A DNA stretch of 64,000 nt from NCBI GenBank assembly GCA_026387835.1, contig JAPLKZ010000013.1:89254-153253 (forward strand). Reading direction: 5' to 3'. The stretch is from Candidatus Saganbacteria bacterium. Its GTDB lineage: Bacteria > Margulisbacteria > WOR-1 > JAKLHX01. Both the position numbers and the translations under genes were made by a program. Under the pieces are notes generated by a model, which had not been told where the DNA came from, made no database searches, and was given only the letters and a program-made list of their open reading frames with translations. Below, piece after piece: positions 7,624-52,153 of the stretch. How positions within the stretch are numbered: the stretch's first letter is position 1; the number at the start of each line of letters is the position of its first letter.

Positions 7624-8799
7624 ATGTATAACTTGCCAGATAAAAACGGATATTTCGGGAAATACGGAGGGACATTTGTACCTGAAACACTGATGCCGTG
7701 CGTCGAAGAACTCAAAGAAGCATATTACTCGTTAAAACATGACCAAAGCCTTAAAAAAGAAATAGGTCATTATCTCAGGGATTTTGCAGGCAGACCGACC
7801 CCTCTTTATCTTGCACAAAACCTTTCAAGAAAACACGGTTTCAAGATCTATCTGAAAAGGGAAGACCTATGCCACACCGGAGCGCACAAGATAAATAATT
7901 GCATCGGGCAGATCCTTCTCGCAAGAAAAATGGGAAAGAAAAGGATAATAGCAGAGACCGGGGCCGGCCAGCACGGCGTCGCGACAGCGACTGTTGCGGC
8001 TTTGTTCGGTCTGAAATGCATCGTCTATATGGGCTCTGAGGATATCAGGCGGCAGGCTTTGAACGTTTACAGGATGGAGCTTCTCGGCGCGGAGGTAAGG
8101 CCGGTAAAGACGGGCAGCAGGACTTTAAAAGAGGCGATAAACGAAGCGCTCCGCGACTGGATGGCGAACGTGAAAGACACTTATTATCTCATCGGTTCAT
8201 GCGTCGGCCCGCATCCATATCCGATGATGGTCAGGGATTTCCAGAAAGTGATAGGGGAGGAAACAAAAAAACAGGTCAAAGCCGCGGAGGACAGACTACC
8301 TGATATCGCAGCCGCGTGCGTCGGCGGCGGCAGCAATTCCATCGGGATGTTCTATCCGTTCATCGACGACGCTTCAGTCAGGCTGGTCGGACTTGAGGCC
8401 GGCGGCAGGAGCATGAAGATCGGCGAAAACGGGGCGGCACTCGCAAAAGGAAAGACCGGGATACTCCACGGGTCAAAAAGCTATGTCCTGCAGACGGCAG
8501 ACGGTCAGATCGCGGGTACGCATTCTATCTCAGCGGGGCTGGACTATCCGGGCGTCGGGCCCGAGCACGCGTATTTGAAAGACTGCGGAAGAGTGAAATA
8601 TGAAAGTATCAGTGATAAAGAAGCCGCGGCCGCTTTTGAATATCTGGCAAAAGAAGAGGGAATAATCCCCGCGCTTGAATCCGCCCACGCGGTAGCTTAC
8701 CTGAAAAAATTGTCCGGGAAACTATCAAAAGATAAGATAGTCGTGATATGCCTGTCGGGACGCGGCGATAAAGATATCGATATGACAAGGAAAAGATGA
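7624..8799 (+). CDS. trpB: tryptophan synthase beta chain
   Basis: 391 aa; [12 protein letters not shown]-lysine motif, [15 protein letters not shown]. Confidence 0.9.
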
Positions 8800-8809
8800 A
8801 TGCCGTCCT

Positions 8810-10261
8810 CTAAACGGTCCTTCTAAACTTATCCAGCCCCTGGATCTTAAGCAAATTGTTGACCATTCCCACGGCATCCTTTTTCAGGTCCGATACGGAA
8901 GATGCCAATTCGATGTAATCTTTTTTGTAGATCAGATCAGAGCCGGGGATGGAGGCAAAAACATTATAATAATCCTTGGTGACGGGGTTGTTCTTTACCG
9001 TTTCGGCGAAGTGTCTTATTGAAGCCGCGGAATCGCCCGCTTCATGGTACACTTCGCTGATCGCATACCTCGGCTCCTTGATCTCCATATTTATCATCAC
9101 GCGCATACCGGGCACACAAACGCGGACAGCCGGGATGTCCAATTTGAGATGGGTCTTGTCGATGACAACGGTCTTGTATCCGGATTTTTCCAGTATCCCC
9201 ATAATATAGAGTATCTCTTCCTTTATATCAGGCTTGCACGCGCTGGGGACCTCATCCATCGTGACGCTTTTTTTACTTTTCAGGAGCATCTCCGTGTTAT
9301 ATAAAGGAAGGAAACCCGTATGTTTTTTAGGCAGCGCGGACATGACCTCTTTCCAGTTGACATTCAGCTCTTCCTGAGAAACGCACATAAGGGAAAAACC
9401 CTCAAAATATTCTGCCAGGGCCCTGATCAGCGCTTTTTGCGGGTCCGTGCTAGCCCCCTGGCCGACCCCCTGATAAGTAAGTTTGTCTTTGTCCTGTTCG
9501 CGGATGCCGTAAGCTATGAAGGTCGGCACTTTGAAATCAAAAGAGATGTCCTTTATTGTGAATTTGATCCCGTTCTTCTGAGAATTTTCCAGAACTCTTG
9601 TCACAAGAAGATTATTGATGCTTTCAAGCTTCAGGTCATTTCCCGGTTCCATGTCCATGAAAAGACGGCAGATGTTCTCCCTTTCTATGACCTCGCAAAG
9701 GGCCTGCAGTATAGCCTCTTCCATCGTGTTGCCGGCTGCGAGCCCGTTGGACCCGACCACCATGTTATGCCAGTTCACCGGATAATAGAACGGTTTCCGG
9801 TCGTTAAGGCACGTGCCCAGGACCCATTTAAGAGGTATGTCCTTTATTTCCCTGAGCAGTTCATCGCGGTCTTTCAGGTCGATGAAATTGCAGAGGAAAT
9901 ATGATTCGTCAACTGTCTGGATATCCCCCTTTTTGATCTCGTTAAAGCTTTTCAGGCAATATCCCTCATAATGTTCATAATCAAAATGCAGCCACGAATA
10001 CCGTTCCGCGAATTCCATGACCGCGCTGGCCTTTGATTGTTCCGGAGTGAGGCCCTTGCCGCTGGTCTTAAGTTTGTCGCTTATGCTTGAAAAAGAATAA
10101 GCGCCTTCAATGGCGTCTTTCCTGGGTTCGATCCTGAAACTTGACAGGTCAAGCATTGTTTCCAGATGTTTTAAGGCGTTTTCTATTGTCGAGGAAGGGT
10201 CCGTGACCTTGTCCTGGTCAAGCGTGTATTTTTTCGGGCAACTTTTAAGTTCGATCACCAT
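8810..10261 (-). CDS. YcaO-domain protein (stand-alone)
   Basis: 483 aa; YcaO-like motifs (GKGLTPEQSKASAVMEFAERYSW, GSNGLAAGNTMEEAILQALCEVIERE); no TfuA or precursor gene adjacent. Confidence 0.65.
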   Translation of the reverse strand: MVIELKSCPKKYTLDQDKVTDPSSTIENALKHLETMLDLSSFRIEPRKDAIEGAYSFSSISDKLKTSGKGLTPEQSKASAVMEFAERYSWLHFDYEHYEGYCLKSFNEIKKGDIQTVDESYFLCNFIDLKDRDELLREIKDIPLKWVLGTCLNDRKPFYYPVNWHNMVVGSNGLAAGNTMEEAILQALCEVIERENICRLFMDMEPGNDLKLESINNLLVTRVLENSQKNGIKFTIKDISFDFKVPTFIAYGIREQDKDKLTYQGVGQGASTDPQKALIRALAEYFEGFSLMCVSQEELNVNWKEVMSALPKKHTGFLPLYNTEMLLKSKKSVTMDEVPSACKPDIKEEILYIMGILEKSGYKTVVIDKTHLKLDIPAVRVCVPGMRVMINMEIKEPRYAISEVYHEAGDSAASIRHFAETVKNNPVTKDYYNVFASIPGSDLIYKKDYIELASSVSDLKKDAVGMVNNLLKIQGLDKFRRTV

Positions 10262-28422: not shown

Positions 28423-28506
28423 AAAAGATCCCCGTTTCGAAAATTATACACCATCAGGTGGAAATAGGGTATAGGGCGAAGAAATGACTAATTAATGGAT
28501 TATATA

Positions 28507-28520
28507 AGCAGCAAGCAGTC
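28507..28520 (+). repeat. AGCAGCAAGCAGTC motif (copy 1), followed by an imperfect palindrome
   Basis: Related copies at 30394-30428 and 31141-31171. Confidence 0.5.
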
Positions 28521-28625
28521 AGCCCGCCTGCAACGCTTTGCGTAGCAATGCGGGCAGGCAGAACGCGGTACGTGCCGAGAGCATGTCAAGCATCCAAACA
28601 TTATACCCCCCCCTCCCCACATAAT

Positions 28626-28670
28626 AAAATTCAGTGAAATTCCCAATATTTCCATTCGATACATATATAG
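28626..28670 (+). promoter_or_regulatory. conserved upstream element (copy 3 of 3), AAAATTCAGTGAAATT-N15-CGATAC-N2-ATATAG
   Basis: Same architecture as 3515-3558; ends 26 nt upstream of ATG 28697. Confidence 0.4.
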
Positions 28671-28696
28671 ATGAAAATACCGAAAGGAGAAAAGTG

Positions 28697-29359
28697 ATGA
28701 ATAATATTAGAGGGATCATGCGTGGATGGACAAACGAAGGAAGACCGGCAACATGGGCGAATGTAAGAAATGCAATAGCGAATCAGACCGCGTGTTCTGT
28801 GGTTGTATCATCAGGATTGGGGCCGATCTTATCGCTTACAAGGCGGAGGGTGGAAGAAGGCCCCGTACAAAAACTTGCGCGGACTGCAACCCCTGCTTTT
28901 GATGTGGCAAAGTTCATGGAAGCCCACAATTTTATCGATGTTCCCGAAAGACCTTTTAGAATAATGGCAGACGAGCTTTCGGTAGGGCTATTCAACCGAT
29001 TTGTTAAAAGCACACAATACGAAATTATAGGCCATAATGCGGATTCTTTAAAAGGAGTTCTTGCCGGAACAGATCGACGCAGTATAGCAACATATTTAAG
29101 CTGGAATGACGGCACGGCTTATGCTAAATGGCTGAGCGCAGTAACTGGCAAAAGCATTATGCTTCCAACAGAGAAGAAATGGTTAGACGCCGTTGACAAA
29201 GTCCGAGATCAACTATCTGGGAACAATTGGGAATGGACGAAAACCCCATATTCCAGCAACGCCTTTGTTCTCCATCACCTGAACAATTCGCTCCGTTTCA
29301 ACTGCATCCCTGGGAATCGTTTTAACTTCAATGCGGTCCGTCTTGTTGAGGACAAATAA
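28697..29359 (+). CDS. DGR target-type protein with FGE/C-type-lectin-like fold and Asn-rich C-terminal VR-like segment
   Basis: Motifs ...LSWNDGTAYAKWLS...LPTEKKWLDAV...GNNWEWTKTP...NSLRFNCIPGNRFNFNAVRLV; RBS aaaggagaaaag; GTG at 28634 is an alternative upstream start. Confidence 0.65.
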   Translation: MNNIRGIMRGWTNEGRPATWANVRNAIANQTACSVVVSSGLGPILSLTRRRVEEGPVQKLARTATPAFDVAKFMEAHNFIDVPERPFRIMADELSVGLFNRFVKSTQYEIIGHNADSLKGVLAGTDRRSIATYLSWNDGTAYAKWLSAVTGKSIMLPTEKKWLDAVDKVRDQLSGNNWEWTKTPYSSNAFVLHHLNNSLRFNCIPGNRFNFNAVRLVEDK

Positions 29360-29429
29360 ATTATCCTTTGCTCTTTTATTCTTTTACTCTTTGAGTGGGA
29401 TGGGGTGGCCAGGAGTTTGAGGGAAATAA

Positions 29430-29768
29430 ATGGAAGGTCCAAAAGTTATAACCTTGGCCTATGATTTCATAAAATGGGCCATTCCTCATATTGTGAAGTT
29501 TCCAAGAAATCAAAGATACACGCTTGGGGAACGGGTTGAAAACAAACTATTCTTCCTTCTGGAACTTCTCATTGAAGCTCAGTATTCTAAAGACAAAGCT
29601 AATGTGCTTAAGAAAGCGAACATGGAAATTGAGCAGACACGATATTTATTCCGTTTATGCCATGACTTGCGGCTGATCAATTTAAAAACCTACGAATTGT
29701 CTTCAAGGCAGTTGATGGGAATTGGGGCGCAGGTCGGGGGATGGATCAAGCAGCAAAATACCAAATGA
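29430..29768 (+). CDS. avd: DGR accessory variability determinant (four-helix-bundle, 23S rRNA IVS protein family)
   Basis: 112 aa; family-typical N-terminus (LAYDFIKWAIPHIVKFPRNQRYTLGERVENKLF); stop overlaps the RT start (ATGA). Confidence 0.75.
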   Translation: MEGPKVITLAYDFIKWAIPHIVKFPRNQRYTLGERVENKLFFLLELLIEAQYSKDKANVLKKANMEIEQTRYLFRLCHDLRLINLKTYELSSRQLMGIGAQVGGWIKQQNTK

Positions 29769-30397
29769 AGCGCCACGGTTATTTATTCGATAAGATCACT
29801 TCTTTTGAAAATCTCTTAAAAGCCTCACGAAAAGCTCAGAGGGGTAAACGCTTCAAGAATTCCACGGCCGAATTTAACTTAAAAATAGAGTCCGAACTGC
29901 TGGAACTGCAAAGAGAACTGCAAGAGGCAACTTATCGAATAGGCAGCTATAAACAATTCTACATTTATGACCCAAAGAAACGGTTAATCAACGCCTTGTC
30001 TTACAGAGACAGGGTTGCTCAGCATGCTTTATGCAATGTTATCGAGCCGATATTCGATAACGGATTAATTTATGATAGTTACGCCTGCAGGAAAGATAAA
30101 GGCAGCCATAGGGCTGTCAGCCGGTTTGCGATGTATTGCCGCAAGAATAAATATGCCTTGAAGTGCGACATTAAAAGCTATTTTGCCTCAATAGATCACG
30201 GCCTCTTGTTTGACATGATCATGAAAAAAATTAAAGACCCGGATGTAATACAGCTGATTAACTTGATCCTTGATTCAACCCCTTCTCCCGGAATTCCAAT
30301 CGGGAATTTGGCCAGCCAAATATTCGCCAATCTTTATCTTAACGGACTTGACCATTATTTAAAGCAACCTTCGAGATTGAAATCGACCCCCGCTTAG
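29765..30397 (+). pseudogene. DGR-type reverse transcriptase, 3-prime truncated (N-terminal about 210 aa only)
   Basis: N-terminal RT motifs (MKRHGYLFDKI, YIYDPKKRLINALSYRDRVAQHALCNVIEPIF, DSYACRKDKGSHRAV, QIFANLYLNGLDHY); ORF stops before the YxDD active-site region. Confidence 0.75.
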
Positions 30398-30428
30398 CAG
30401 TCCGCAGCAAGCAGTCTGCAAGCTGCGG
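30394..30428 (+). repeat. TTAGCAG...GCAGCAAGCAGTC...CTGCGG motif (copy 2) at the RT breakpoint
   Basis: Overlaps the stop of the truncated RT ORF; related to copies 1 and 3. Confidence 0.5.
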
Positions 30429-31038: not shown

Positions 31039-31140
31039 AAATATCCTCTCTTTCCCGGATCAAGGCTTAAAGCCAGCAGCTTACAAATGGTCAATGAGCA
31101 ATTTATCCGCCACGACAAAGGCTCTATCGCTAGGGTTCTA

Positions 31141-31171
31141 TTAGCAGCAAGCAGTCCGCAGACTGCGGAAC
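31141..31171 (+). repeat. TTAGCAGCAAGCAGTCCGCAGACTGCGG motif (copy 3)
   Basis: Flanks the ORF6N gene on the side opposite copy 2; contains palindrome CCGCAGACTGCGG. Confidence 0.5.
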
Positions 31172-38167: not shown

Positions 38168-38479
38168 ATGGAATTAAGATTTAACAAAGACGGGCTTGTC
38201 CCGGCCATCGCCCAGGATCATAAGACAGGGGATGTCCTGATGCTCGCCTACATGAACGCCGAGTCGCTTGAAAAGACCCTGAAAGACAAGAAGGCGTGGT
38301 ACTGGAGCAGGAGCAGGAACAAACTATGGATGAAAGGGGAAACTTCCGGAAATGTCCAGCGGGTCAAGGAGGTCTTATATGACTGCGATGAGGACGCGAT
38401 ACTATTAAAGGTAGAGCAGACCGGACCTGCCTGCCATACCGGCAACCGCAGTTGTTTTTACAGGAAATTTGAATTATAA
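38168..38479 (+). CDS. hisI: phosphoribosyl-AMP cyclohydrolase
   Basis: 103 aa; [46 protein letters not shown]. Confidence 0.9.
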
Positions 38480-40695: not shown

Positions 40696-41061
40696 ATGGC
40701 CGAAAAAAAAGAAGCAGGGCCGGAACAAAAACCCGACATCGAATTGATCCCGGCGGAAAAAAAACGCACAGCCGTCGCATTGAGATATGATATCGAAAAA
40801 GACGCGGCCCCTCTTGTCCTGGCTTCGGGAAGAGGTCTCGTCGCCGATGAGATCCTCAGGATCGCTGAAGAGAACGAGATCCCCCTTTACGAAAATCCGC
40901 GGCTTGCAGATATACTTTCAAAGCTTGAGCTTGATACACAGATACCTCAGGAGATGTACATACTTGTGGCCGAGGTCCTCTACTTTGTCTATCAACTGGA
41001 CAGGATGGCGGAGAAAAGACAAAATCTGGTAAAAAAGATAAAAGATGAGACAAAAAAGTAG
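40696..41061 (+). CDS. FlhB C-terminal domain-like small protein
   Basis: 121 aa; ...AVALRYDIEKDAAPLVLASGRGLVADEILRIAEENEIPLYENPRLADIL...IPQEMYILVAEVLYFVY. Confidence 0.7.
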   Translation: MAEKKEAGPEQKPDIELIPAEKKRTAVALRYDIEKDAAPLVLASGRGLVADEILRIAEENEIPLYENPRLADILSKLELDTQIPQEMYILVAEVLYFVYQLDRMAEKRQNLVKKIKDETKK

Positions 41062-41143: not shown

Positions 41144-41171
41144 TTGAAATTTTGCAACGCTTGTGTATAAT
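41144..41171 (+). promoter_or_regulatory. near-consensus sigma-70 promoter (TTGAAA-16 bp-TATAAT) upstream of flgF
   Basis: Hexamers at 41144-41149 and 41166-41171. Confidence 0.5.
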
Positions 41172-41213: not shown

Positions 41214-41972
41214 ATGCCTGACCGGATATTATCAATAGGGCAAAGTGCTCTCGAGAGCTCTGACGCAAAAGTCAAAGCGATGATGAATAATATCGTCAAT
41301 GCCCAGACGCCGGGCTATAAAAAGTCAGATGTTTCTATAAAATCTTTCCCGCTGATGCTGGAGAACGAGACGCAGTCGCTTGAATCAGGCGGCCGTTCCG
41401 GAGCGATGATGCCCAAGGTGACCGGAGTATTCCGCGATCAGGCTCACGGTCCGATATTCAAGACCGGCGGAGCAACGGATGCGGCAATAGGAGGCGACGG
41501 ATATTTTGTCCTCCAGGGAAACGAAGGCGAGGTCTTTACAAGGGACGGAAGGTTCACTCTTGACCAGGACGGGAAGCTTATCAGTATTTCCGGAAAATAT
41601 CCGGTCCTCGGAAAGAGCGGCCCTATCGTGGTGATCCCGGGATCAAGTATCGCGATCTCACAGAACGGAAGTGTTCTTGTAGATGATGTACAGGTCGACA
41701 TGCTCAGGGTCGTGGTATTTAACGACCCTAAAAAGCTCGAACCGATAAATAATTCGCTTTTTAAAGCATCTTCTATTGATGAAGCGACATACGAGGAAGA
41801 TGATAACCCGCGGGTCATACAGGGCTATATCGAATCTTCGAACGTGAGCATCATGGACGAATACATGGAAATGATATTGTTAAGCAGGATGTATGATGGA
41901 AATACAAAGATCATTCAGTCTAGAGATGCAGCGTTGGCTAAGGCCATCGAGCTTGGAAAACCGGCACAATGA
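41214..41972 (+). CDS. flgF: flagellar basal-body rod protein (FlgF-like)
   Basis: 252 aa; N-terminal rod motif (NNIVNAQTPGYKK) and C-terminal rod motif. Confidence 0.7.
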   Translation: MPDRILSIGQSALESSDAKVKAMMNNIVNAQTPGYKKSDVSIKSFPLMLENETQSLESGGRSGAMMPKVTGVFRDQAHGPIFKTGGATDAAIGGDGYFVLQGNEGEVFTRDGRFTLDQDGKLISISGKYPVLGKSGPIVVIPGSSIAISQNGSVLVDDVQVDMLRVVVFNDPKKLEPINNSLFKASSIDEATYEEDDNPRVIQGYIESSNVSIMDEYMEMILLSRMYDGNTKIIQSRDAALAKAIELGKPAQ

Positions 41973-42006: not shown

Positions 42007-42813
42007 ATGTTCCAGCCATTATACGTGGCCGCGACCGGGCTTAACACTTTCGAGGATGAAATAACCGACATCACAAACAATCTCGCAAATTCCAAGACAG
42101 TCGGTTTCAAAAAGGGGCGGACTGAAAAAGAAAGCCTTTTTGTCATGGAAAAGAATTTCTCGTCGCATTTAAATGAAGCGATAAGAAGGCAGCAGGAGGA
42201 AGGGGTAGGGACAAGCGCGGTCGAGTTCGGTACCGGAGTCAGGGTCGTTTCCACCCCGAAGGACTTTACCCAGGGCACTATTGAGACGACGAACAATCCT
42301 ACAGATATTGCCATATCGGGGGAAGGTTTTTTCCAGATAAGTATGCCTGACGGCAAGATAGCCTATAGCAGAGCAGGAGGCTTCCATGTTGACAGCGATG
42401 GTAACTTCGTAGACCCGAACGGCCATTTGTTGGACCCGCCGGTGATATTGCCGCAGAATACGACAAGCATTCTTATAAAGGAAAACGGCATGGTGTTTGT
42501 TTCGATAAACAACTCGATAGACCTCACGGAAGTAGGGCAGATAAATCTTGCAAAGTTCACAAGTCCCGCCGGACTGAAAAGCCTCGGACAAAACCTTTAT
42601 GAAGAGACGACAGCGTCGGGGTCTCCGATGATCGGACTGCCTACTCAGGAAGGATACGGATCGTTGCAGCAGTCGGCGCTGGAACAGTCAAATGTGGACG
42701 TCATTTCGGAAATGATGAGAATGATAATGGTCCAAAGGGTTTTTGATACAGTTACAAAAGCCGTGCAAACCTATGATGCGATGCTAACATCCGTAGAAAG
42801 GATGAAGGCGTAG
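42007..42813 (+). CDS. flgG: flagellar basal-body rod protein FlgG
   Basis: 268 aa; N-terminal NNLANSKTVGFKK, C-terminal rod heptad region. Confidence 0.8.
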   Translation: MFQPLYVAATGLNTFEDEITDITNNLANSKTVGFKKGRTEKESLFVMEKNFSSHLNEAIRRQQEEGVGTSAVEFGTGVRVVSTPKDFTQGTIETTNNPTDIAISGEGFFQISMPDGKIAYSRAGGFHVDSDGNFVDPNGHLLDPPVILPQNTTSILIKENGMVFVSINNSIDLTEVGQINLAKFTSPAGLKSLGQNLYEETTASGSPMIGLPTQEGYGSLQQSALEQSNVDVISEMMRMIMVQRVFDTVTKAVQTYDAMLTSVERMKA

Positions 42814-42837: not shown

Positions 42838-43554
42838 ATGCTTTTAAAAAAGTCATCAACGCTATTGGTTTTTGGTATACTTTTATTAGTATTGCCTTGT
42901 TTTGCTGCTATGTCCGTAGAAGAAAATATTTCGGAAGCGGTAAAAAATGAGATTGTCAGAAGAAACCAGGCGTTGGAAGACAGCAGGATCGATGTCGGGT
43001 TCAAAGATCCTGATGCGATCTTTGAGGGCCTGACAAGTAAAAAAGAAAAATTGACTTACAAAATAGGTATTCCGGAAAATAGAAGGCTTTCGGGAAATTT
43101 AGTGATACCTGTAAATGTCTATGCCGGCAGAAACTTTATTGAACAAGTAAACGTCAATTGTTCAATAAAAATATTCAAAAAGATATTGGTCAGTTCGGCG
43201 AAGATAAACAAAGGAGCAATATTGACTGGGAAAGAGATGTCTTTGATCGAGAAGGATATTTCTGTCCTGCCCTCGACAGTCATATTTGAGCAGGACAGCA
43301 TACTGGGCAAAGAGGCTATGACTTTTATTCCTAAAGGGACAGTCCTTCTCGACTGGATGTTCAAGGAGGTCCCTGTCGTGAGGAAAGGCGATATCGTAGA
43401 ACTTTATAAAGCGGTTTCGGGTGTCAATGTAAGCGTGAAAGCGGTCGTGCTTGAAGACAGCTATCTGGGTAAAAACGTCAGAGTGAGGAACCTGTCTTCG
43501 CAAAAGACGGTGGAGGGCATTGTCAGAAGTTCAAAAGAAGTAGAGGCATTATGA
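42838..43554 (+). CDS. flgA: flagellar P-ring assembly chaperone FlgA
   Basis: 238 aa; signal peptide and C-terminal SAF-like domain. Confidence 0.65.
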   Translation: MLLKKSSTLLVFGILLLVLPCFAAMSVEENISEAVKNEIVRRNQALEDSRIDVGFKDPDAIFEGLTSKKEKLTYKIGIPENRRLSGNLVIPVNVYAGRNFIEQVNVNCSIKIFKKILVSSAKINKGAILTGKEMSLIEKDISVLPSTVIFEQDSILGKEAMTFIPKGTVLLDWMFKEVPVVRKGDIVELYKAVSGVNVSVKAVVLEDSYLGKNVRVRNLSSQKTVEGIVRSSKEVEAL

Positions 43555-43922
43555 TATTCAGGCAGATGTTAAAAGCAAAGATCCACCGCTTGACGGTCAC
43601 GGAGTCAAGGCTTGATTATGAGGGAAGCATAACGATAGACAAAACCCTGCTGGAAACTTCAGGGATAGTCGAATCGGAAAAAGTACATGTCGTGAATGTC
43701 TCGACCGGAGACAGGTTTGAGACATATGTAATGACCGGAAAAAAGAATTCGGGGATCGTATGCCTGAACGGAGGAGCCGCAAGGATGGGAAGTCCGGGAG
43801 ATCTCATCATCGTCATCTCGTATGCCGCAGTAGATGAAGATTCCCTTTTGAAGTATTGTTCCAGGAAAGTTCTGGTGGACGGTAAAAACAGGGTCAAAAG
43901 GATCATACAGGAGAAAAAATGA
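43551..43922 (+). CDS. panD: aspartate 1-decarboxylase (pyruvoyl-dependent)
   Basis: 123 aa; KIHRLTVTE...YEGSITID with Gly-Ser self-cleavage site, VHVVNV, GIVCLNGGAAR; ATGA overlaps with both flgA and flgH. Confidence 0.9.
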   Translation: MIFRQMLKAKIHRLTVTESRLDYEGSITIDKTLLETSGIVESEKVHVVNVSTGDRFETYVMTGKKNSGIVCLNGGAARMGSPGDLIIVISYAAVDEDSLLKYCSRKVLVDGKNRVKRIIQEKK

Positions 43923-44524
43923 AAAGGATACTGTCTTTCATTTTGATCGCCGCAGTTTTTTCTCAGTTGGCCGTGCCGGCATTGTCGGATTCTTTGTGGA
44001 ACGAAAACAGTTCTTCTTTATACGCGACGCAGAAACCGTTCAAACCGGGCGATATCATAATGGTTATTGTCGTGGAAAATACTTCTGCTGCCCAGAAAGC
44101 GGGCACGGATACGTCAAATCAGGACAATCTGAGTCTCAGCTTTACACACACGATCAACAAACTGACGCAGTATTTAGGTCCGCTGGGTACGCCTCAATCA
44201 CTATCGGGTCAGGCGTCCTCAGCTTATAAAGGATCAGGCGACACTTCCAGGTCAAACAATGTTCTTGCCGTCGTGACCGCAACAGTCCAAAATGTTCTGC
44301 CGAACGGGAATGTTGTTATTTTTGGCACACACAAGGTGACTGTAAATGAAGAAATTCAGGAGGTATTGATCAAAGGAATCGTGAGGCCGGCGGATGTAAC
44401 GAGCTGGAATACGGTATATTCATTTCAAGTTGCGGATTCGACCGTTTCAGTTAAAGGTACCGGTACTGTCGATGAAGCCTCGTCGCCGGGGGTTGTCAGG
44501 AGAGTGCTTAATTGGATATTCTAA
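43919..44524 (+). CDS. flgH: flagellar L-ring protein FlgH
   Basis: 201 aa; signal peptide; FlgH-like sequence. Confidence 0.75.
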   Translation: MKRILSFILIAAVFSQLAVPALSDSLWNENSSSLYATQKPFKPGDIIMVIVVENTSAAQKAGTDTSNQDNLSLSFTHTINKLTQYLGPLGTPQSLSGQASSAYKGSGDTSRSNNVLAVVTATVQNVLPNGNVVIFGTHKVTVNEEIQEVLIKGIVRPADVTSWNTVYSFQVADSTVSVKGTGTVDEASSPGVVRRVLNWIF

Positions 44525-45720
44525 GCAAAATGACAAGAAAAATATCTGTGGCAGTCCTTTTTACGGTGCTAGTCGTGACAGTCTCCTCATTTGCCGCGTC
44601 TCCGTCCGTAAGGATAAAAGACATCGCAACAATAGACCAGGCGCGCGAGAACCAACTTATAGGATTCGGGCTTGTAGCGGGGCTCCGGCAGTCAGGGGAC
44701 AGCCAGCAGACCGAGTTTACAAAACAGGCGATAGCAAATCTTCTATCCCGCATGGGGATGTCTCCCCCGTCGCCCATAACAAGCTCAACGTCACGATCAC
44801 TTACAAATCTATATAATTTTTCAACGATCCCTAAATCGCAGGAATACAGGTCAAAGAACGTCGCCGCAGTGATGGTGACTGCTACGCTCCCTCCGTTCAT
44901 GAAACCGGGGCAGAAAATAGATGTAACCGTGGCAAGTATAGGGGACGCCGCTAGCCTTAAAGGCGGCAACCTTCTGGCAACGCAGCTGCTGGGGATGGAC
45001 GGTCAGACATATGCGGTGGCGCAGGGGCCTGTCTCTCTGGGCGGGGTCAGCGATTCGAACTTTTTACCTTTCAGAACGGATATAGCTACAACGGGAAGAG
45101 TTCCCGGGGGAGGGCTGGTCGAAAAGGAGATCCCCGTCAGTATTGAAGAAGAGCTGGCTCAGACAGACACGGCTGAAGCCTCCAGTTCGATCACGGGGTT
45201 CAAAATACTTTTGAACGAACCTGATTTTACGACAGCTTCAAGAGTTGCATACACAATAGCGAAAGAAGGCATCGATGTCCAGGCCCTTGATGCAGCTTCG
45301 ATAATGGTCAGGGTCACTCCGGGAGATGACGCGATATCACTTATCTCAAAGATCGAAACACTGAGGGTCATTCCTGACGTGAAAGCAAAAATTGTGATCA
45401 ACGAAAGGACCGGCACGATAGTGATCGGCGAAAATATCAGGATCGCGCCGGTAGCCGTCACTTACGGGAATTTCACCGTGACAATAGGGCCGGCATCTCT
45501 TACGTCAGGATTGAGCGAGACAGGGGGCATTCCTTTATCTTCAACGAATGTAATGATAAAGGAAAGCAATAAAAAACTTGTCATCTTGAAGGAATCCGCG
45601 AATTTATCAGACCTTGTGAGATCGCTGAACTCGATAGGAGCCACTCCAAAAGACCTGATAGCTATCATTCAGGCTATAAAGCAATCCGGCGCATTGACCG
45701 CCGACCTGGAGATCATGTGA
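44512..45720 (+). CDS. flgI: flagellar P-ring protein FlgI
   Basis: 402 aa; signal peptide; carries a Ser/Pro/Thr-rich insertion of about 25 aa. Confidence 0.85.
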   Translation: MDILSKMTRKISVAVLFTVLVVTVSSFAASPSVRIKDIATIDQARENQLIGFGLVAGLRQSGDSQQTEFTKQAIANLLSRMGMSPPSPITSSTSRSLTNLYNFSTIPKSQEYRSKNVAAVMVTATLPPFMKPGQKIDVTVASIGDAASLKGGNLLATQLLGMDGQTYAVAQGPVSLGGVSDSNFLPFRTDIATTGRVPGGGLVEKEIPVSIEEELAQTDTAEASSSITGFKILLNEPDFTTASRVAYTIAKEGIDVQALDAASIMVRVTPGDDAISLISKIETLRVIPDVKAKIVINERTGTIVIGENIRIAPVAVTYGNFTVTIGPASLTSGLSETGGIPLSSTNVMIKESNKKLVILKESANLSDLVRSLNSIGATPKDLIAIIQAIKQSGALTADLEIM

Positions 45721-46043
45721 TGGATAATTTTATCCCGCCGGTGATCTTTAATCGCAACAGCGCGTACACCGGCAGCGTCACGCAGCCCGGTCCGGTGCAG
45801 GGCGATGCCGTGACGGCGGTCTCTTCGCTGTTTTTGCAGACCATGCTGAAAGAGATCTATAAAAACCAGTTTAAAAACGAACTTTTTACGACGGAAAACA
45901 ATCCATCATCCTCGGTTTTTTCCGATATGTTCGTAGAACAGATGATAAATGAGATGGCAAATGCCGATACTTTCGGACTTAACAAGATGATCTCTTCGGC
46001 GATTGAGCCGCGGGATGTAATAGAGGAAAGCAAATGCCCGTAA
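45717..46043 (+). CDS. rod-binding protein (FlgJ N-terminal domain-like)
   Basis: 108 aa; position between flgI and fliA and rod-binding-like sequence. Confidence 0.5.
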   Translation: MMDNFIPPVIFNRNSAYTGSVTQPGPVQGDAVTAVSSLFLQTMLKEIYKNQFKNELFTTENNPSSSVFSDMFVEQMINEMANADTFGLNKMISSAIEPRDVIEESKCP

Positions 46044-46783
46044 GACCGAAACAAGAATCGTTAAAACAGCAACAGCCTTACAGGCCTGCCATGGCCATGG
46101 AGGCGTACCTGCCGCTAGTCCATTCGATAGCGGCTATGATCTCAGGGAAAGGCCTCCCGCCGAACATAGATTATAACGATCTTGTAAGCGACGGCACTAT
46201 AGGGCTGATGAAAGCGTGGGATAATTTCGATCCTAAAAGGGGGGTCAAGTTCGAGACTTATGCTTCTTACAGGGTCAGGGGCGAGATACTGGACGGGCTC
46301 AAATATTACAATCCCGTTCCTTACAGGATACAGGTGATGATAAGGGACCTTGCGAAAAAAGGATACGACACAATACTAAAACGCGGCGAAAAAGAGTCCG
46401 GCATCTCGACAAAGGATTCAAAGCTTCTCGAAAAAAAGAGCCTCAGCGAGTCGGAATTCAAAGCGGCTGTCACAAAGATCCAGAAGATAGTATCTGCTTC
46501 GGCTTTGATGTACCTTGTTTCACTGGAACAGGCTTCCGATTCTTCGGAGATCCAGGTATCCGGAGAAAGGACCCCTGTCGAGGAGCTTGAATCCAGCGAT
46601 CTTAAATTAAGGCTTGATAACGAGATAAAAAGCCTTCCGAAGATGGAACGAACGGTGCTCGAACTTTTTTTCAAAAAAGGCCTTAGCCAGAAGGATATTG
46701 CAAAGGACCACAAACTGTCAAGAAGCAAGGTCAACAGGCTTATCGCGAGGGCAATAAACAGGCTGAAGGAAAAGTTGAAATAG
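46034..46783 (+). CDS. fliA: flagellar sigma factor (sigma-28, FliA/WhiG family)
   Basis: 249 aa; sigma-70 region 2 and region 4 HTH. Confidence 0.75.
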   Translation: MPVRPKQESLKQQQPYRPAMAMEAYLPLVHSIAAMISGKGLPPNIDYNDLVSDGTIGLMKAWDNFDPKRGVKFETYASYRVRGEILDGLKYYNPVPYRIQVMIRDLAKKGYDTILKRGEKESGISTKDSKLLEKKSLSESEFKAAVTKIQKIVSASALMYLVSLEQASDSSEIQVSGERTPVEELESSDLKLRLDNEIKSLPKMERTVLELFFKKGLSQKDIAKDHKLSRSKVNRLIARAINRLKEKLK

Positions 46784-46792
46784 GGCATAAAT

Positions 46793-47086
46793 ATGGAAAT
46801 ATTCGATCCTACGATGTCAAATATTGAAAGTGCGATGGCGAGGAGCATAAAGATCCAGGAAGTTACCGCGCACAATATCGCCAACGCGCAGACGCCCGGC
46901 TTTACGGCTAAAAAATTTGACGAGGTACTGAACAAAGCCGTCGAGCGCGAAGAAAATAAAACAGTGAATCTGGAAGAAGAAATGGCCGAAATGGCGAAGA
47001 ACAACACCAGGTATTCGACATATGCAAAACTAATGTCGGCAAAGCTCGCCGTGCTGAGAAATGTGATATCGCAGGGGAGAAAATAA
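46793..47086 (+). CDS. flgB: flagellar basal-body rod protein FlgB
   Basis: 97 aa; N-terminal rod motif HNIANAQTPGF. Confidence 0.8.
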   Translation: MEIFDPTMSNIESAMARSIKIQEVTAHNIANAQTPGFTAKKFDEVLNKAVEREENKTVNLEEEMAEMAKNNTRYSTYAKLMSAKLAVLRNVISQGRK

Positions 47087-47089
47087 GAC

Positions 47090-47530
47090 ATGGGATTAAA
47101 CAGCGCGTTGGATATCTCTGTTTCCGCGATAAACGCCGAACGGCTTCATATGGAGCTTATAGCAAGCAATATCGCAAATATCAATACTACGAAGACCGTT
47201 GACGGGGGCATCTACAGGAGAAAGGTGCTTTCCTATACGGAAAAACCGGTAACGTTTGAAGATGTCCTTGCCGGCGCGCAGAAAAAGGCCGAGATAAAAA
47301 CAGGCGGGGGAGTAGATGTGTCCGTTACTGAAGATATGAGCGCCCCTATGCAGAAAATATTCAACCCCGGTCATCCGGATGCCGATGAGAAGGGATACGT
47401 GACGCTTCCGAACGTGTCGTTGTCTACGGAGATGACGGACCTTATATTTGCGGGAAGACTTTATGAGACGAATGTTACGGTCTTTAGCGCGACAAAAAAA
47501 ATGCAAACTGAAGCTCTCCAGATACAGTAA
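47090..47530 (+). CDS. flgC: flagellar basal-body rod protein FlgC
   Basis: 146 aa; SNIANINTTKT and GYVTLPNV motifs. Confidence 0.85.
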   Translation: MGLNSALDISVSAINAERLHMELIASNIANINTTKTVDGGIYRRKVLSYTEKPVTFEDVLAGAQKKAEIKTGGGVDVSVTEDMSAPMQKIFNPGHPDADEKGYVTLPNVSLSTEMTDLIFAGRLYETNVTVFSATKKMQTEALQIQ

Positions 47531-47543
47531 AGGAGACCGATAA

Positions 47544-47894
47544 ATGGCTGAAGGCATAAGCAGGATAGACCCGAATTTGCTGGCCCAGATCATGGGGCCC
47601 GAGACAACTCCTGCCGCCCCTGAAGTGGGCCAACCGTCAGCGGCATCCCCCGAGATAAAATCCTCCGGCATGACGTTCGACGATATCTTAGGTAAAGCCG
47701 TTAATGCGCTTGACGGGGTGAGCAATGTCGAGAACGATGCGAATTTAATGATGGAAAAATACATGAAAGGCCAGGTCGACGTATCGGACGTCATGATAGC
47801 CACGGCGAAGATGAACATTGCGGTCCAGCTTGCGGTGGCTACCGTCACTTCCGCCGTGAACACGTTCAAAGAAATAACTCAGATGCAGATCTGA
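47544..47894 (+). CDS. fliE: flagellar hook-basal body complex protein FliE
   Basis: 116 aa; C-terminal FliE motif. Confidence 0.75.
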   Translation: MAEGISRIDPNLLAQIMGPETTPAAPEVGQPSAASPEIKSSGMTFDDILGKAVNALDGVSNVENDANLMMEKYMKGQVDVSDVMIATAKMNIAVQLAVATVTSAVNTFKEITQMQI

Positions 47895-47910
47895 TAAAAA
47901 GGAGTGATCG

Positions 47911-49518
47911 ATGGGAGAGGCCAGAGCCCCGGGAAGAATGTCGGACACTAACAGGAATCTTATTATTTCGACTTCTGTTGTAGTGGTCGTTTCGCTTATA
48001 GTCCTGCTGGTGTTCTTCAGGTCGTGCGGCTTGTACGACAGGAATGCAGGTTATAAAGTTATCTACTCCAATCTCGACTTGAAAGATGCCGCGAACGTCG
48101 TCACCGTCCTTAAGGTCATGAAGATACCTTACCAGATAAGGGATGACGGCCGTACTGTAGCGGTCCCGAAAGACAAGGCCGATGACGCGAAGCTGGGTCT
48201 CGCGGAAAAAAATCTGCCTACGGGCGGGTCGGTAGGATGGGAGATATTTGACCAGTCAAAGCTGGGGACCACCGATTTTGACCGAAGGGTACAGTTTGTA
48301 AGAGCGATTTCGGGAGAGCTTGCGAGGACGATAATGAGGATAGATGCGGTACTGGATGCAAGGGTGCAGATAGTCATTCCTCAAACCTCACTTTTTGAGG
48401 TGGCAAAAGCTCCTGTCACGGCTTCAGTCCTGCTGCAGCTTCGTACCGGAAGAAAGATTTCCCGCGAGCAGGTTAACGGGATAGTATACCTTGTCGCGAG
48501 CAGCGTGGAAAATCTAAGACCGGAAAACGTCATAATAGTCGATATCTACGGCAACATCTTAAGCGGCCCCGGTGTGGGTTCCGTGGAAGCCAATGTCGTC
48601 GCCTCGCCTGTCACAGAGCAGATGTATATCGCCCCGACACAAGAAGTTGCGGAAAAAGCTCCGGTAAAAGAGATCTTGATCTCAAAGACCGTGCCCACAG
48701 GAATAAAAGAGACGGCAGCCATAGCTCAGCTCGCCGCCACAAAAGAGACAGAGACCATTTCTTTGCCGCAGAAGAAACTGACCGTCGAAGAGAAAGTGGT
48801 CGTGAAGTTCAAGGCAAAGGAAGAATTCGAGAACATGCTCTCCAGCAAGGTCCAGAAAGTTGTGAATAATTTTTATCCGCCGAACAGCATCCTGGTGAAA
48901 GTAAATGTCGACCTGGCGGAATATAAAGAAAGCCCGAAAAAACACACTGCAACTGCGGTAAAAGCAAAAAAACATGTCATTTCCAGCATGGAGAACGGCA
49001 AAAAACCAGTCCCGTCAAAAATGTTGACGGAAGATAATATCAAGAAGATGACCGTCATAGTCCTTGTGGACAACAGGTTCAATCTTACAAAACAGCAAAA
49101 AAAGACTACTTATGAGATGATAGGCAACGCGATTTCATACCACCCCAGCAGGGGGGACAGGATCATTTTAAGGCAGGTCCCGTTCCATTATGCTACAGCC
49201 TTTCAGCCGGGAATGATGCAAAAAGGATCTGCATCTAAGATGGAAAGTAAGAGATCACTTCCGGAAAAAATGATCTCACTACTCGGCCAAAACACTGCGG
49301 TGTCAGTTTTGGCGGCGTTGTTTATCTTCCTTTTGGCGGTGCTGGCCGCGAGGACATTTTCGAGAAGAAGGTCTTTGGAACAGGAAGCCGAGGAGATGAG
49401 CGAACCGGATGAAAGAATGAGGACAGCTTCTTCGGCGATAGAGCAGATAAGGACAGTGGTCGCGCAGTCTCCAGACCGCGTGGCGGAGCTCATGAAAAAC
49501 TGGCTGAGCGAAAAATAA
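47911..49518 (+). CDS. fliF: flagellar M-ring protein FliF
   Basis: 535 aa; N-terminal TM, periplasmic ring-building motifs, C-terminal TM and FliG-binding tail. Confidence 0.85.
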   Translation: MGEARAPGRMSDTNRNLIISTSVVVVVSLIVLLVFFRSCGLYDRNAGYKVIYSNLDLKDAANVVTVLKVMKIPYQIRDDGRTVAVPKDKADDAKLGLAEKNLPTGGSVGWEIFDQSKLGTTDFDRRVQFVRAISGELARTIMRIDAVLDARVQIVIPQTSLFEVAKAPVTASVLLQLRTGRKISREQVNGIVYLVASSVENLRPENVIIVDIYGNILSGPGVGSVEANVVASPVTEQMYIAPTQEVAEKAPVKEILISKTVPTGIKETAAIAQLAATKETETISLPQKKLTVEEKVVVKFKAKEEFENMLSSKVQKVVNNFYPPNSILVKVNVDLAEYKESPKKHTATAVKAKKHVISSMENGKKPVPSKMLTEDNIKKMTVIVLVDNRFNLTKQQKKTTYEMIGNAISYHPSRGDRIILRQVPFHYATAFQPGMMQKGSASKMESKRSLPEKMISLLGQNTAVSVLAALFIFLLAVLAARTFSRRRSLEQEAEEMSEPDERMRTASSAIEQIRTVVAQSPDRVAELMKNWLSEK

Positions 49519-49531
49519 TGACGGAGTCAAA

Positions 49532-50065
49532 ATGGTCTTAACTGGAAGAGAAAAAGCGACGATATTGTTATCGTTATTGGGCGCCGACCTGTCGGCGCAG
49601 ATACTGAGAAGCCTGCCTCCCGATATGGCGGACCTTATTGCTTCGGGAATAAACAATCTTCCGAACCCGTCTTCGGATGTAATATCGTCCGTACTCGAAG
49701 AGTTCGCGTCTTTTATTGCTCTTCCGGATGCTTCTCAAAAGAGAGGGATCGAACAGCAGGCATCTGCCAGGAGCACTCAGGCACCGCCAAAAGCGAACAG
49801 AAGCCCGTACGACACCCTTTTTTATTCCAAACCGAAAAAAGTGGCCATGGCACTTTCAGCAGAAAGATCGTCCGTCACTGCGTTCGTAATGTCGATGCTC
49901 CCGGCCGTGCAGGCAAGGGATGTTTTGGCATTCATGCCGGACAGGAAAAATGAGATCGAAGATATCATGAGAGACCTAAGGCAGACCCCGATGTCAGAAA
50001 AGGTCAAGGAAGACGTAATCGCGATACTGGCTGAACGGATCGAAAGGATGTATTCGGAAGGTTAA
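49532..50065 (+). CDS. fliG: FliG-like protein, short (177 aa)
   Basis: N-terminus GREKATILLSLLGADLSAQILRSL resembles FliG N-domain; ORF ends 6 nt before fliH. Confidence 0.55.
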   Translation: MVLTGREKATILLSLLGADLSAQILRSLPPDMADLIASGINNLPNPSSDVISSVLEEFASFIALPDASQKRGIEQQASARSTQAPPKANRSPYDTLFYSKPKKVAMALSAERSSVTAFVMSMLPAVQARDVLAFMPDRKNEIEDIMRDLRQTPMSEKVKEDVIAILAERIERMYSEG

Positions 50066-50070
50066 ATATT

Positions 50071-50817
50071 ATGGCATTGATAAAAAGATCGCAAGTCATT
50101 GAAAGAGGTTGTATAGACCTGAAGACAGAGGTCCCTGCCATCAGGCAGCAGCCGTCGGCCGATTTTTCCGGGGAAGAAGCGCAGGCTTTTGAAGAGATAA
50201 AAGAAGAGATCGTTTCTCATACAGTGGATGAAGCTTATGAAAAAACAGGGGAGATAATCGCCCAGGCCCAGGCAGAGGCCAAAGAGCTATTAAAAAAGGC
50301 CAATCAAGAGGCGGAGACCCTGTTCTTAAGGACAAAGGAAGAAGCGGTGCAGGCGGGCAAGGCCGAAGGCGAAGCCAGCGTGAGCGAGAACATAACCGCT
50401 TCGCTTGAGACACTGAACAACGCGATAAAGGAAAGAAAAAGGATCATCAAGGATTCGGAAGGGGAGATCCTGCGGCTTTCACTGAAGATAGCGGAACAGG
50501 TGATAAGAAGCGAAGTGTCGCTGCACAAGGATGTGGTGATGAACATCGTGGCCGAGGCGGTGAACAAGGTCAGCGACAGGGAGAATGTAATAATAAAGGT
50601 CAACAGGGAAGATGCCGAGCATATAAAAAAATACAAGGACAGGCTGTCAGGGATAGTGGATGGCGTGAAAAACCTTTCTATAATAGAAGACAGCCAGGTA
50701 GAACCCGGAGGCTGTGTTATCGAGACGAATCTCGGGTTTGTCGACGCGCGCGTCAGCACAAAACTCTCGCTGATAGAGCAATCGCTTATGAAGGCGCAGG
50801 CAAGTGTCACAGAATAA
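50071..50817 (+). CDS. fliH: flagellar assembly protein FliH
   Basis: 248 aa; coiled-coil N-terminal half and C-terminal FliH motif. Confidence 0.7.
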
Positions 50818-52153
50818 TTCTCTCCAGGAAAACACTTCTTTGATAGATTTTGAAAAATACCACAAAGCCGTAGAACGTTCCGAAGGAATAAGGGTCATCG
50901 GAAAGGTCATCCAGGTCGTCGGATTGATCCTTGAGGCGCAGGTGCAGGGGGTCTCAATAGGAGACCTCTGTATCATCAGGCTGAATAAGGGAAACGCCGA
51001 TGACATCAGGTATGGGGAGGTCGTCGGATTCAAGGAAGGAAGGGTCCTTCTGATGCCGCTCGGCACGACCACGGGGATATCTCCGGGTTCCGAAGTCCTT
51101 GCCGCGGGACATCCTCTGATGGTAAAAGTAGGCCAAGGGCTTTTGGGCAGGGTGCTCGGAGGTCTGGGAGAGCCTATTGATGATAAAGGCCCTTTGATAA
51201 CCGAAGAAGAAAGGCCTCTTGACGCCGATCCTCCGGACCCGGTGAAAAGACCGAGGGTGACGGAAATAATCAGGGCCGGGATCCGGGCGATAGACGGGCT
51301 GCTTACTTTGGGAAGAGGGCAAAGGATCGGGATCTTTGCCGGTTCAGGAGTGGGTAAATCGACGTTGATGGGCATGCTCGCGAGGAACGCGGAAGCGGAT
51401 GTAAACGTCATAGCGCTCATCGGAGAGCGCGGAAGAGAAGTAAGGGATTTTATCGAGGAATCGCTGGGAGAAGAGGGCCTGAAAAAATCCGTCGTAGTGG
51501 TGGCGACATCGGACCAGCCGCCTCTGGTCAGGCTAAAAGCGTCTTTTGTGGCTACGGCTATAGCGGAATATTTCAGGGACCAGGACAAAAAGGTCATCTT
51601 CATGATGGATTCGGTGACGCGCTTTGCGTACGCGCAAAGGGACGTGGGGCTGGCGTCCGGAGAGCCTCCCACGACGAGAGGTTATACTCCGTCGGTCTTT
51701 GCGATGCTGCCGAGGCTTATGGAAAGGTCAGGCACGGCGGAGATAGGTTCCATCACCGGACTTTACACCATACTTGTCGAAGGAGATGATTTCAACGAAC
51801 CTATAGCCGATCAGTCAAGGAGCATTCTTGACGGCCATATAATACTGTCCAGGGCGCTTGCGGCAAAGAACCATTATCCGGCGATAGATGTGCTTCCGAG
51901 CGTGAGCCGGTTGATGTCTAACCTTGTTTCGGATGAGCACAAAGAAGCGGCCGGAAAGCTCAGGGAGGTTCTGGCGCGCTACAGCGAAGCCGAAGACCTC
52001 ATCAATATCGGTGCTTATGTAAAAGGGTCCAACCCGAAGATCGACGAGGCGATCGCAAAGATCGACGCGGTCAACGAATTCCTCAAACAGGGCACTTTTG
52101 AACAGGTAATGTTCGAGGACATGCTTGACCAGCTCCTTTCAATATTTTACTGA
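50804..52153 (+). CDS. fliI: flagellum-specific ATP synthase FliI
   Basis: 449 aa; Walker A GSGVGKST. Confidence 0.9.

Follow-up and report, generated by a model that had tools for sequence, protein, structure and literature searches.

The window analyzed here is a stretch of 64,000 nucleotides from Candidatus Saganbacteria, the WOR-1 lineage, whose neighbors are Cyanobacteria and Melainabacteria. It contains a long array of genes read in one direction, in which a flagellar block is embedded (Table 1). The block begins with fliK (39371), a gene for an FlhB-C-terminal-like protein (40696), flgF, flgG, flgA, panD, flgH, and flgI, and continues through the rod-binding FlgJ-like gene to fliI. The same strand carries carB, dnaE, a lone hisI, and rplY upstream of fliK, and fliI is followed by glyS (after a gap of 12 nt), a class II aminoacyl-tRNA synthetase gene, a PfkB kinase gene, an aldolase gene, and relA/spoT. 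The whole series dnaE-hisI-rplY-fliK...fliI-glyS-aaRS-pfkB-aldolase-relA shares one orientation, and from flgF onward no gap exceeds 42 nt. The apparent transcription unit opens with flgF, which is preceded by a 152-nt gap containing a candidate sigma-70-like promoter, the best site in the region, proposed from its consensus match only. No convincing terminator was found on the plus strand within the flagellar block.

Table 1. Features of the window discussed in the text (positions count from the first letter of the window).
Feature	Position	Strand	Remarks
PLP-dependent enzyme gene	7624-8799	+	
YcaO-family gene	8810-10261	-	convergent with the preceding gene
Repeated motif, three copies	28497-28532, 30404-30428, 31133-31168		about 25-30 nt
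FGE-sulfatase/C-type-lectin-like protein gene	28634-29359	+	retroelement-like set (28634-30397)
bAvd-like accessory protein gene	29430-29768	+	retroelement-like set
Short reverse-transcriptase ORF	29741-30397	+	218 aa; retroelement-like set
hisI, phosphoribosyl-AMP cyclohydrolase	38168-38479	+	103 aa
FlhB C-terminal-only gene	40696-41061	+	121 aa; TIGR00789 (flhB_rel)
Candidate operon promoter, sigma-70-like	41144-41171	+	TTGAAA-16-TATAAT, 11/12 consensus match
flgF, rod protein	41214-41972	+	PF22692 / PF06429; first gene of the apparent transcription unit
flgG, rod protein	42007-42813	+	PF22692 / PF06429; second gene of the apparent transcription unit
flgA, P-ring assembly chaperone	42838-43554	+	PF13144, E 5.8e-23; TIGR03170, 91.3 bits (cutoff 54.65)
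Shine-Dalgarno-like GTAGAGG (putative)	43540-43546	+	3' end of flgA; spacing of 4 nt to the panD ATG
ATGA overlap, flgA stop/panD start	43551-43554	+	TGA 43552-43554 over ATG 43551-43553
panD, pyruvoyl-dependent aspartate 1-decarboxylase proenzyme	43551-43922	+	ATG start, TGA stop, 123 aa; PF02261, TIGR00223
Gly25-Ser26 codons, predicted self-processing site forming the pyruvoyl group	43623-43628	+	YEGS motif in the translation
Shine-Dalgarno-like AGGAG (putative)	43909-43913	+	3' end of panD; spacing of 5 nt to the flgH ATG
ATGA overlap, panD stop/flgH start	43919-43922	+	TGA 43920-43922 over ATG 43919-43921
flgH, L-ring protein	43919-44524	+	PF02107, E 3.1e-46
FlgH N-terminal segment	43919-44010	+	signal peptide-like
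flgI, P-ring protein	44512-45720	+	PF02119, E 5.3e-106
Rest of the flagellar block	45717-52153	+	flgJ-like, FliA/WhiG-type sigma, flgB, flgC, fliE, fliF, short fliG, fliH, fliI
fliG	49532-50065	+	177 aa

Several genes of the array have features of their own. The fliG product matches the FliG_N and FliG_M domains (TIGR00207 positions 9-188 of 338) and is without the C-terminal torque-generating domain. It is equally short (170-183 aa) in all relatives examined, and thus the gene is not a frameshifted one. Directly 3' of fliK, a small gene encodes the C-terminal (autocleavage/switch) domain of FlhB alone, and this gene is kept in all relatives. The N-terminus of FlgH, MKRILSFILIAAVFSQLAVPALSDSLW, resembles a signal peptide, and inspection by eye found no lipobox cysteine in it, so the L-ring protein may not be a lipoprotein here. 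The flgI gene starts either with TTG at 44512 or with a downstream ATG (396 aa), as called on other assemblies. The stand-alone hisI gene between dnaE and rplY is another isolated biosynthetic gene amid unrelated genes of the array, and its placement is kept in relatives.

Outside the array, three adjacent genes look like a remnant of a diversity-generating retroelement, and no long pair of template and variable repeats was found near them (28.6-30.4 kb). Three copies of a motif with the core AGCAGCAAGCAGTCNGC flank these genes and an ORF6N gene. Elsewhere in the window, a gene for a PLP-dependent enzyme is followed by a YcaO-family gene on the opposite strand.

The earlier note on this DNA had recognized a pyruvoyl-type aspartate 1-decarboxylase between flgA and flgH. 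Enzymes of this family decarboxylate L-aspartate, and the beta-alanine that results feeds into pantothenate and CoA synthesis. The profile searches agree with the assignment, with matches far stronger than chance would give. The protein matches PF02261 (Asp_decarbox) with an E value of 2.1e-44 and 150.5 bits (cutoff 25) over profile positions 2-114 of 115, and scores 130.6 bits against the cutoff of 106 for the panD equivalog TIGR00223 in an NCBIfam search. Structural matches include the aspartate 1-decarboxylase chains 2c45_A (E 3e-27 over panD residues 3-114) and 1ppy_A (E 5.3e-23 over residues 3-118) in PDB. The protein is full length, and no extra domain is present in it.

The residues required for self-processing and catalysis were compared in an alignment of the window protein, E. 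coli PanD, and 120 homologs from databases. Gly25-Ser26, the counterpart of Gly24-Ser25 of E. coli PanD, is the cleavage site whose loss would have spoken against the identification; it is intact here, and none of the 121 aligned homologs, those from a flagellar context among them, departs from the Gly-Ser pair. The catalytic and substrate-binding residues of the E. coli enzyme are K9, H11, Y22, R54, T57, Y58, N72, and I86. The window protein has equivalents of all of them as well as of G24 and S25. These positions are invariant or nearly so among the 121 homologs, and the same catalytic residues occur in PanD of the 10 flagellar-context relatives. Thus, judged by its sequence, the open reading frame certainly encodes a bona fide PanD proenzyme and not a PanD-like relic, and its chemistry is presumably that of canonical PanD; its metabolic role is presumed from family membership. 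A reading of the protein as a pseudo-enzyme was rejected in view of the conserved catalytic residues. A His-to-Arg substitution at E. coli position 77 was considered as a signature of the clade and dropped, since Arg is the majority residue (107 of 121 homologs).

The start and stop codons of panD overlap those of both neighbors, and the raw sequence bears out the earlier description of an ATGA at each junction. Upstream of both panD and flgH, a Shine-Dalgarno-like motif lies in the 3' end of the preceding gene. The 4-nt overlap between flgA and panD is identical in nine of nine relatives of the clade defined below as clade A, and a GGAGG/GAGG-like motif precedes panD at the equivalent position in all nine lineages. 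In one further relative (L100) the overlap is 1 nt. The junction between panD and flgH is less uniform: the two genes overlap in some relatives and are up to about 36 nt apart in others. Overlaps of 4 nt occur at six co-directional junctions of the window (24158/24161, 24985/24988, 26252/26255, 43551/43554, 43919/43922, and 45717/45720); being common, they are a mark of compact operon structure and nothing peculiar to panD. Given the overlaps, the Shine-Dalgarno-like motifs within the upstream genes, and the lack of a convincing plus-strand terminator, it is reasonable to infer that panD is co-transcribed with the ring genes and that its translation is coupled to that of flgA and flgH.

The same arrangement is found well beyond the window. 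The nearest database protein, from a Candidatus Saganbacteria MAG, is 99% identical to the window PanD. Ten independent assemblies of the same strain carry an identical PanD, with 0 nucleotide differences in panD, in the same flgA-panD-flgH context. The order flgA-panD-flgH recurs in about 10 further lineages with PanD proteins 52-78% identical to that of the window (L011/L012, L013/L014 (=L020), L015/L022, L017, L018 (=L019), L023, L024, L025, L029, and L100), and these divergent relatives with the same junctions come from NCBI, JGI, ENA, and Logan.

One might suspect that the arrangement is an artefact of assembly or binning, or a recent horizontal insertion, such as a chimeric contig or a mobile cassette. 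Nothing specific speaks for this beyond the general doubt attaching to any MAG-derived sequence, and the chance that it is correct is negligible. The identical sequence and junctions on 10 independent assemblies contradict it, as do the same junctions in many divergent relatives. The composition of panD (GC 0.45, GC3 0.55) is in line with that of the neighboring genes, the overlapping frames leave no space for the ends of a mobile element, and the nearest PanD homologs are from other Margulisbacteria. Taken together, the assemblies, the relatives, the composition, and the homologs refute an assembly chimera or a recent horizontal transfer.

To describe the distribution, a FlgI alignment scan with one genome per GTDB species yielded 80 loci, and tblastn was then used to look in them for PanD as well as for FlgA, FlgH, and further proteins of the flagellum. 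Among 15 loci of the Margulisbacteria type, seven have panD between flgA and flgH (L019, L020, L022-L025, and L029), one is truncated, and in seven flgA is followed directly by flgH (L026-L028 and L030-L033, some of them from MAGs named WOR-1 or Saganbacteria). In one of the latter (L027), flgA overlaps flgH by 4 nt (L027 9209-9212). No panD was found near flgI in any of the 65 loci from other phyla (tblastn, fetched flanks up to 10 kb). The placement of panD between flgA and flgH is real, old, and restricted by lineage. The synteny comparison suggested earlier shows that the arrangement is conserved within one Saganbacteria clade and is not a one-off; no paper describing it was found.

In a neighbor-joining tree of concatenated FlgG, FlgH, FlgI, and sigma factor sequences (1021 columns), two groups are of interest. 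Clade A has nine members, all with panD, and 100% bootstrap support. Clade B (86% bootstrap) comprises seven species without panD and, near its base, the panD-containing L029. Two histories fit the tree with L029 in this position: panD was inserted before the divergence of both clades and then lost, repeatedly, in most of clade B, or it entered the same junction on two independent occasions. The latter would argue for function. The PanD phylogeny (119 columns) does not separate a single from a double insertion, because bootstrap values are at most 0.29 for every relevant grouping. panD does not behave as a core flagellar gene, being missing from seven of the eight clade B operons as well as from the fetched flanks of flgI in the 65 loci of other phyla.

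Within clade A, panD is under purifying selection: pN is 0.12-0.26 versus pS of 0.66-0.94, with synonymous sites saturated. The dN/dS ratio between the window and L011 is about 0.11 for panD and 0.12 for flgI. These values bear on the proposal that PanD has been co-opted as an inactive or moonlighting double-psi beta-barrel, serving as a structural, chaperone, or regulatory factor in L- and P-ring assembly. The only argument for such a role is the place of the gene between those for the P-ring chaperone and the L-ring protein, with tight coupling to both. Substitutions in panD follow the pattern of an enzyme kept by purifying selection, and all catalytic and self-processing residues are conserved in every flagellar-context copy. 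The protein scores above the equivalog cutoff at full length, with neither an additional domain nor a signal peptide. A co-opted PanD is thus very improbable.

The localization of the products points the same way. The translations of FlgA and FlgH begin, as judged by eye, with hydrophobic, signal-like segments, unlike PanD. The N-terminus of PanD, MIFRQMLKAKIHRLTV, is a conserved beta-strand of the family, and inspection by eye found no signal peptide in it; the panD product therefore does not share the export signal of its ring-gene neighbors FlgA, FlgH, and FlgI, whose sites are the periplasm or the outer membrane.

Other contexts of panD were considered for comparison. Both relatives from outside Margulisbacteria that were examined for context have the canonical one: a Syntrophales MAG (L099) with panC-panD and WOR-3 (L101) with panB-panC-panD. 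Together with the absence of panD from the flgI loci of other phyla, they support the earlier description of the flagellar context as unusual. No panB (PF02548) or panC (PF02569) is found in the 64-kb window, and tblastn searches with PanB and PanC of L099 and L101 against the window and 101 loci (flanks of at most 10 kb) gave no match in any Margulisbacteria locus. A different setting is seen in Margulisiibacteriota GCA_042562495.1, where a PanD homolog with 53% identity (L016 8001-8372) lies in a polysaccharide-biosynthesis cluster of genes for glycosyltransferases, WbqC, a FemAB-like protein, a deacetylase, and an epimerase, with no pan genes adjacent. This context may hint at a use of beta-alanine other than in CoA synthesis in Margulisiibacteriota.

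The earlier note had offered two alternatives, selfish hitch-hiking of panD or a functional link of motility with the supply of beta-alanine. In the latter scenario, beta-alanine or CoA supply would be co-expressed with the basal-body and ring genes, for example to meet a demand for acyl carriers and lipids while a structure spanning the envelope is assembled, or beta-alanine would serve a purpose outside CoA synthesis, such as the attachment of beta-alanyl groups to a component of the envelope or flagellum. The position of panD is stable over about 11 lineages, with the flgA/panD overlap and the Shine-Dalgarno-like motif conserved; L029, grouped with an otherwise panD-less clade, has the gene at the same site; and the L016 copy is situated among genes for polysaccharide synthesis. 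However, seven of the eight flagellated species of clade B build the operon without panD, and the arrangement occurs in none of the other phyla sampled (65 loci). FlgA, FlgH, and FlgI work in the periplasm, yet PanD lacks a signal peptide; no further pantothenate or modification gene is present in the block; and literature searches found no such link. The proposal is further weakened by the housekeeping genes dnaE, hisI, rplY, glyS, and relA/spoT in the same packed array. Nothing favors a functional link over simple hitch-hiking of the gene, and we consider it unlikely.

A bolder version of the proposal is less likely still. Here the PanD of the clade would serve beyond CoA synthesis, either as an orphan enzyme in genomes without panB and panC, or as a source of beta-alanine timed with expression of the ring genes for modification of the envelope or flagellum; the presence of panD in L029 would then reflect selection and not shared ancestry.

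The explanation that we prefer, with a probability of about 0.7, is that a functional panD was relocated into a compact flagellar operon and is held there by hitch-hiking, without a mechanistic role in building the flagellum. Most probably, the gene left a panC-linked position in an ancestor of the Saganbacteria (WOR-1) clade and was inserted between flgA and flgH, which overlap by their start and stop codons in relatives without the insertion. It would now share the transcript of the flgF-flgG-flgA-...-fliI block, and its translation would be coupled to that of its two neighbors. The PanD protein is predicted to cleave itself at Gly25-Ser26, forming the pyruvoyl cofactor, and to decarboxylate L-aspartate to beta-alanine. 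In a compact genome, hitch-hiking would provide a small housekeeping gene with a dependable promoter and ribosome hand-over, and panD would be kept at the junction because the enzyme is needed and its expression there is adequate.

The direction of the relocation and the lack of a functional link are both inferred. Some observations count against hitch-hiking. L029 has panD at the same site although it groups with clade B; the arrangement has also been held through saturation of synonymous sites, and the flgA/panD overlap persists in all nine clade A lineages. Selection for co-expression would yield the same stability. A specific flagellar role is nevertheless not favored, given the panD-less operon of the sister clade, the housekeeping genes in the array, and the cytoplasmic PanD among periplasmic neighbors.

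Full-text searches found no paper on panD in a flagellar operon, or on flagella or pantothenate metabolism in Saganbacteria, and the paper describing Saganbacteria mentions neither flagella nor pantothenate. The arrangement is apparently unreported; it combines a known enzyme with a variant of gene order and does not constitute a new kind of system. Most likely, it is an operon curiosity rather than new biology. If the preferred reading is correct, the locus matters little: it is a clean, datable case in which a flagellar operon of an uncultured lineage, sister to Cyanobacteria, has captured a housekeeping gene and coupled its translation to that of the operon. Synteny studies may use the placement to mark one Saganbacteria clade, and it may serve as a warning against annotation through guilt by association. 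Should panB and panC both prove to be absent from clade A genomes, or should panD have been inserted on two occasions, the locus would instead point to an unrecognized role of beta-alanine in the biogenesis of the envelope or flagellum.

Three known systems can be compared with the window. The first is the panD-less flagellar locus of WOR-1 RIFOXYB2_FULL_37_13 (L027). It shares the gene order from flgF to fliI, the upstream series dnaE-hisI-rplY-fliK, and the start/stop coupling; flgA is joined straight to flgH there, whereas in the clade of the window panD is interposed and both junctions are still compact. The second is canonical PanD, as represented by 2c45, 1ppy, and TIGR00223. The window protein resembles it in fold family, length, the Gly-Ser self-processing site, and the catalytic Lys, His, Tyr, Arg, Thr, Tyr, and Asn residues, and genomic context is the sole difference: canonical panD is usually found beside panC or panB-panC, whereas panD of the window is set apart from the pan genes within a flagellar basal-body operon. 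The third is Helicobacter pylori, in which flagellar genes are dispersed through multicistronic operons (PMC2883586). In both cases flagellar and non-flagellar genes share tight transcription units in a small genome, and a functional link between them is not required. However, the flagellar genes of H. pylori are scattered among others, whereas in the window a single metabolic gene lies inside an otherwise contiguous flagellar block, joined to each neighbor by overlapping start and stop codons and placed alike throughout the clade.
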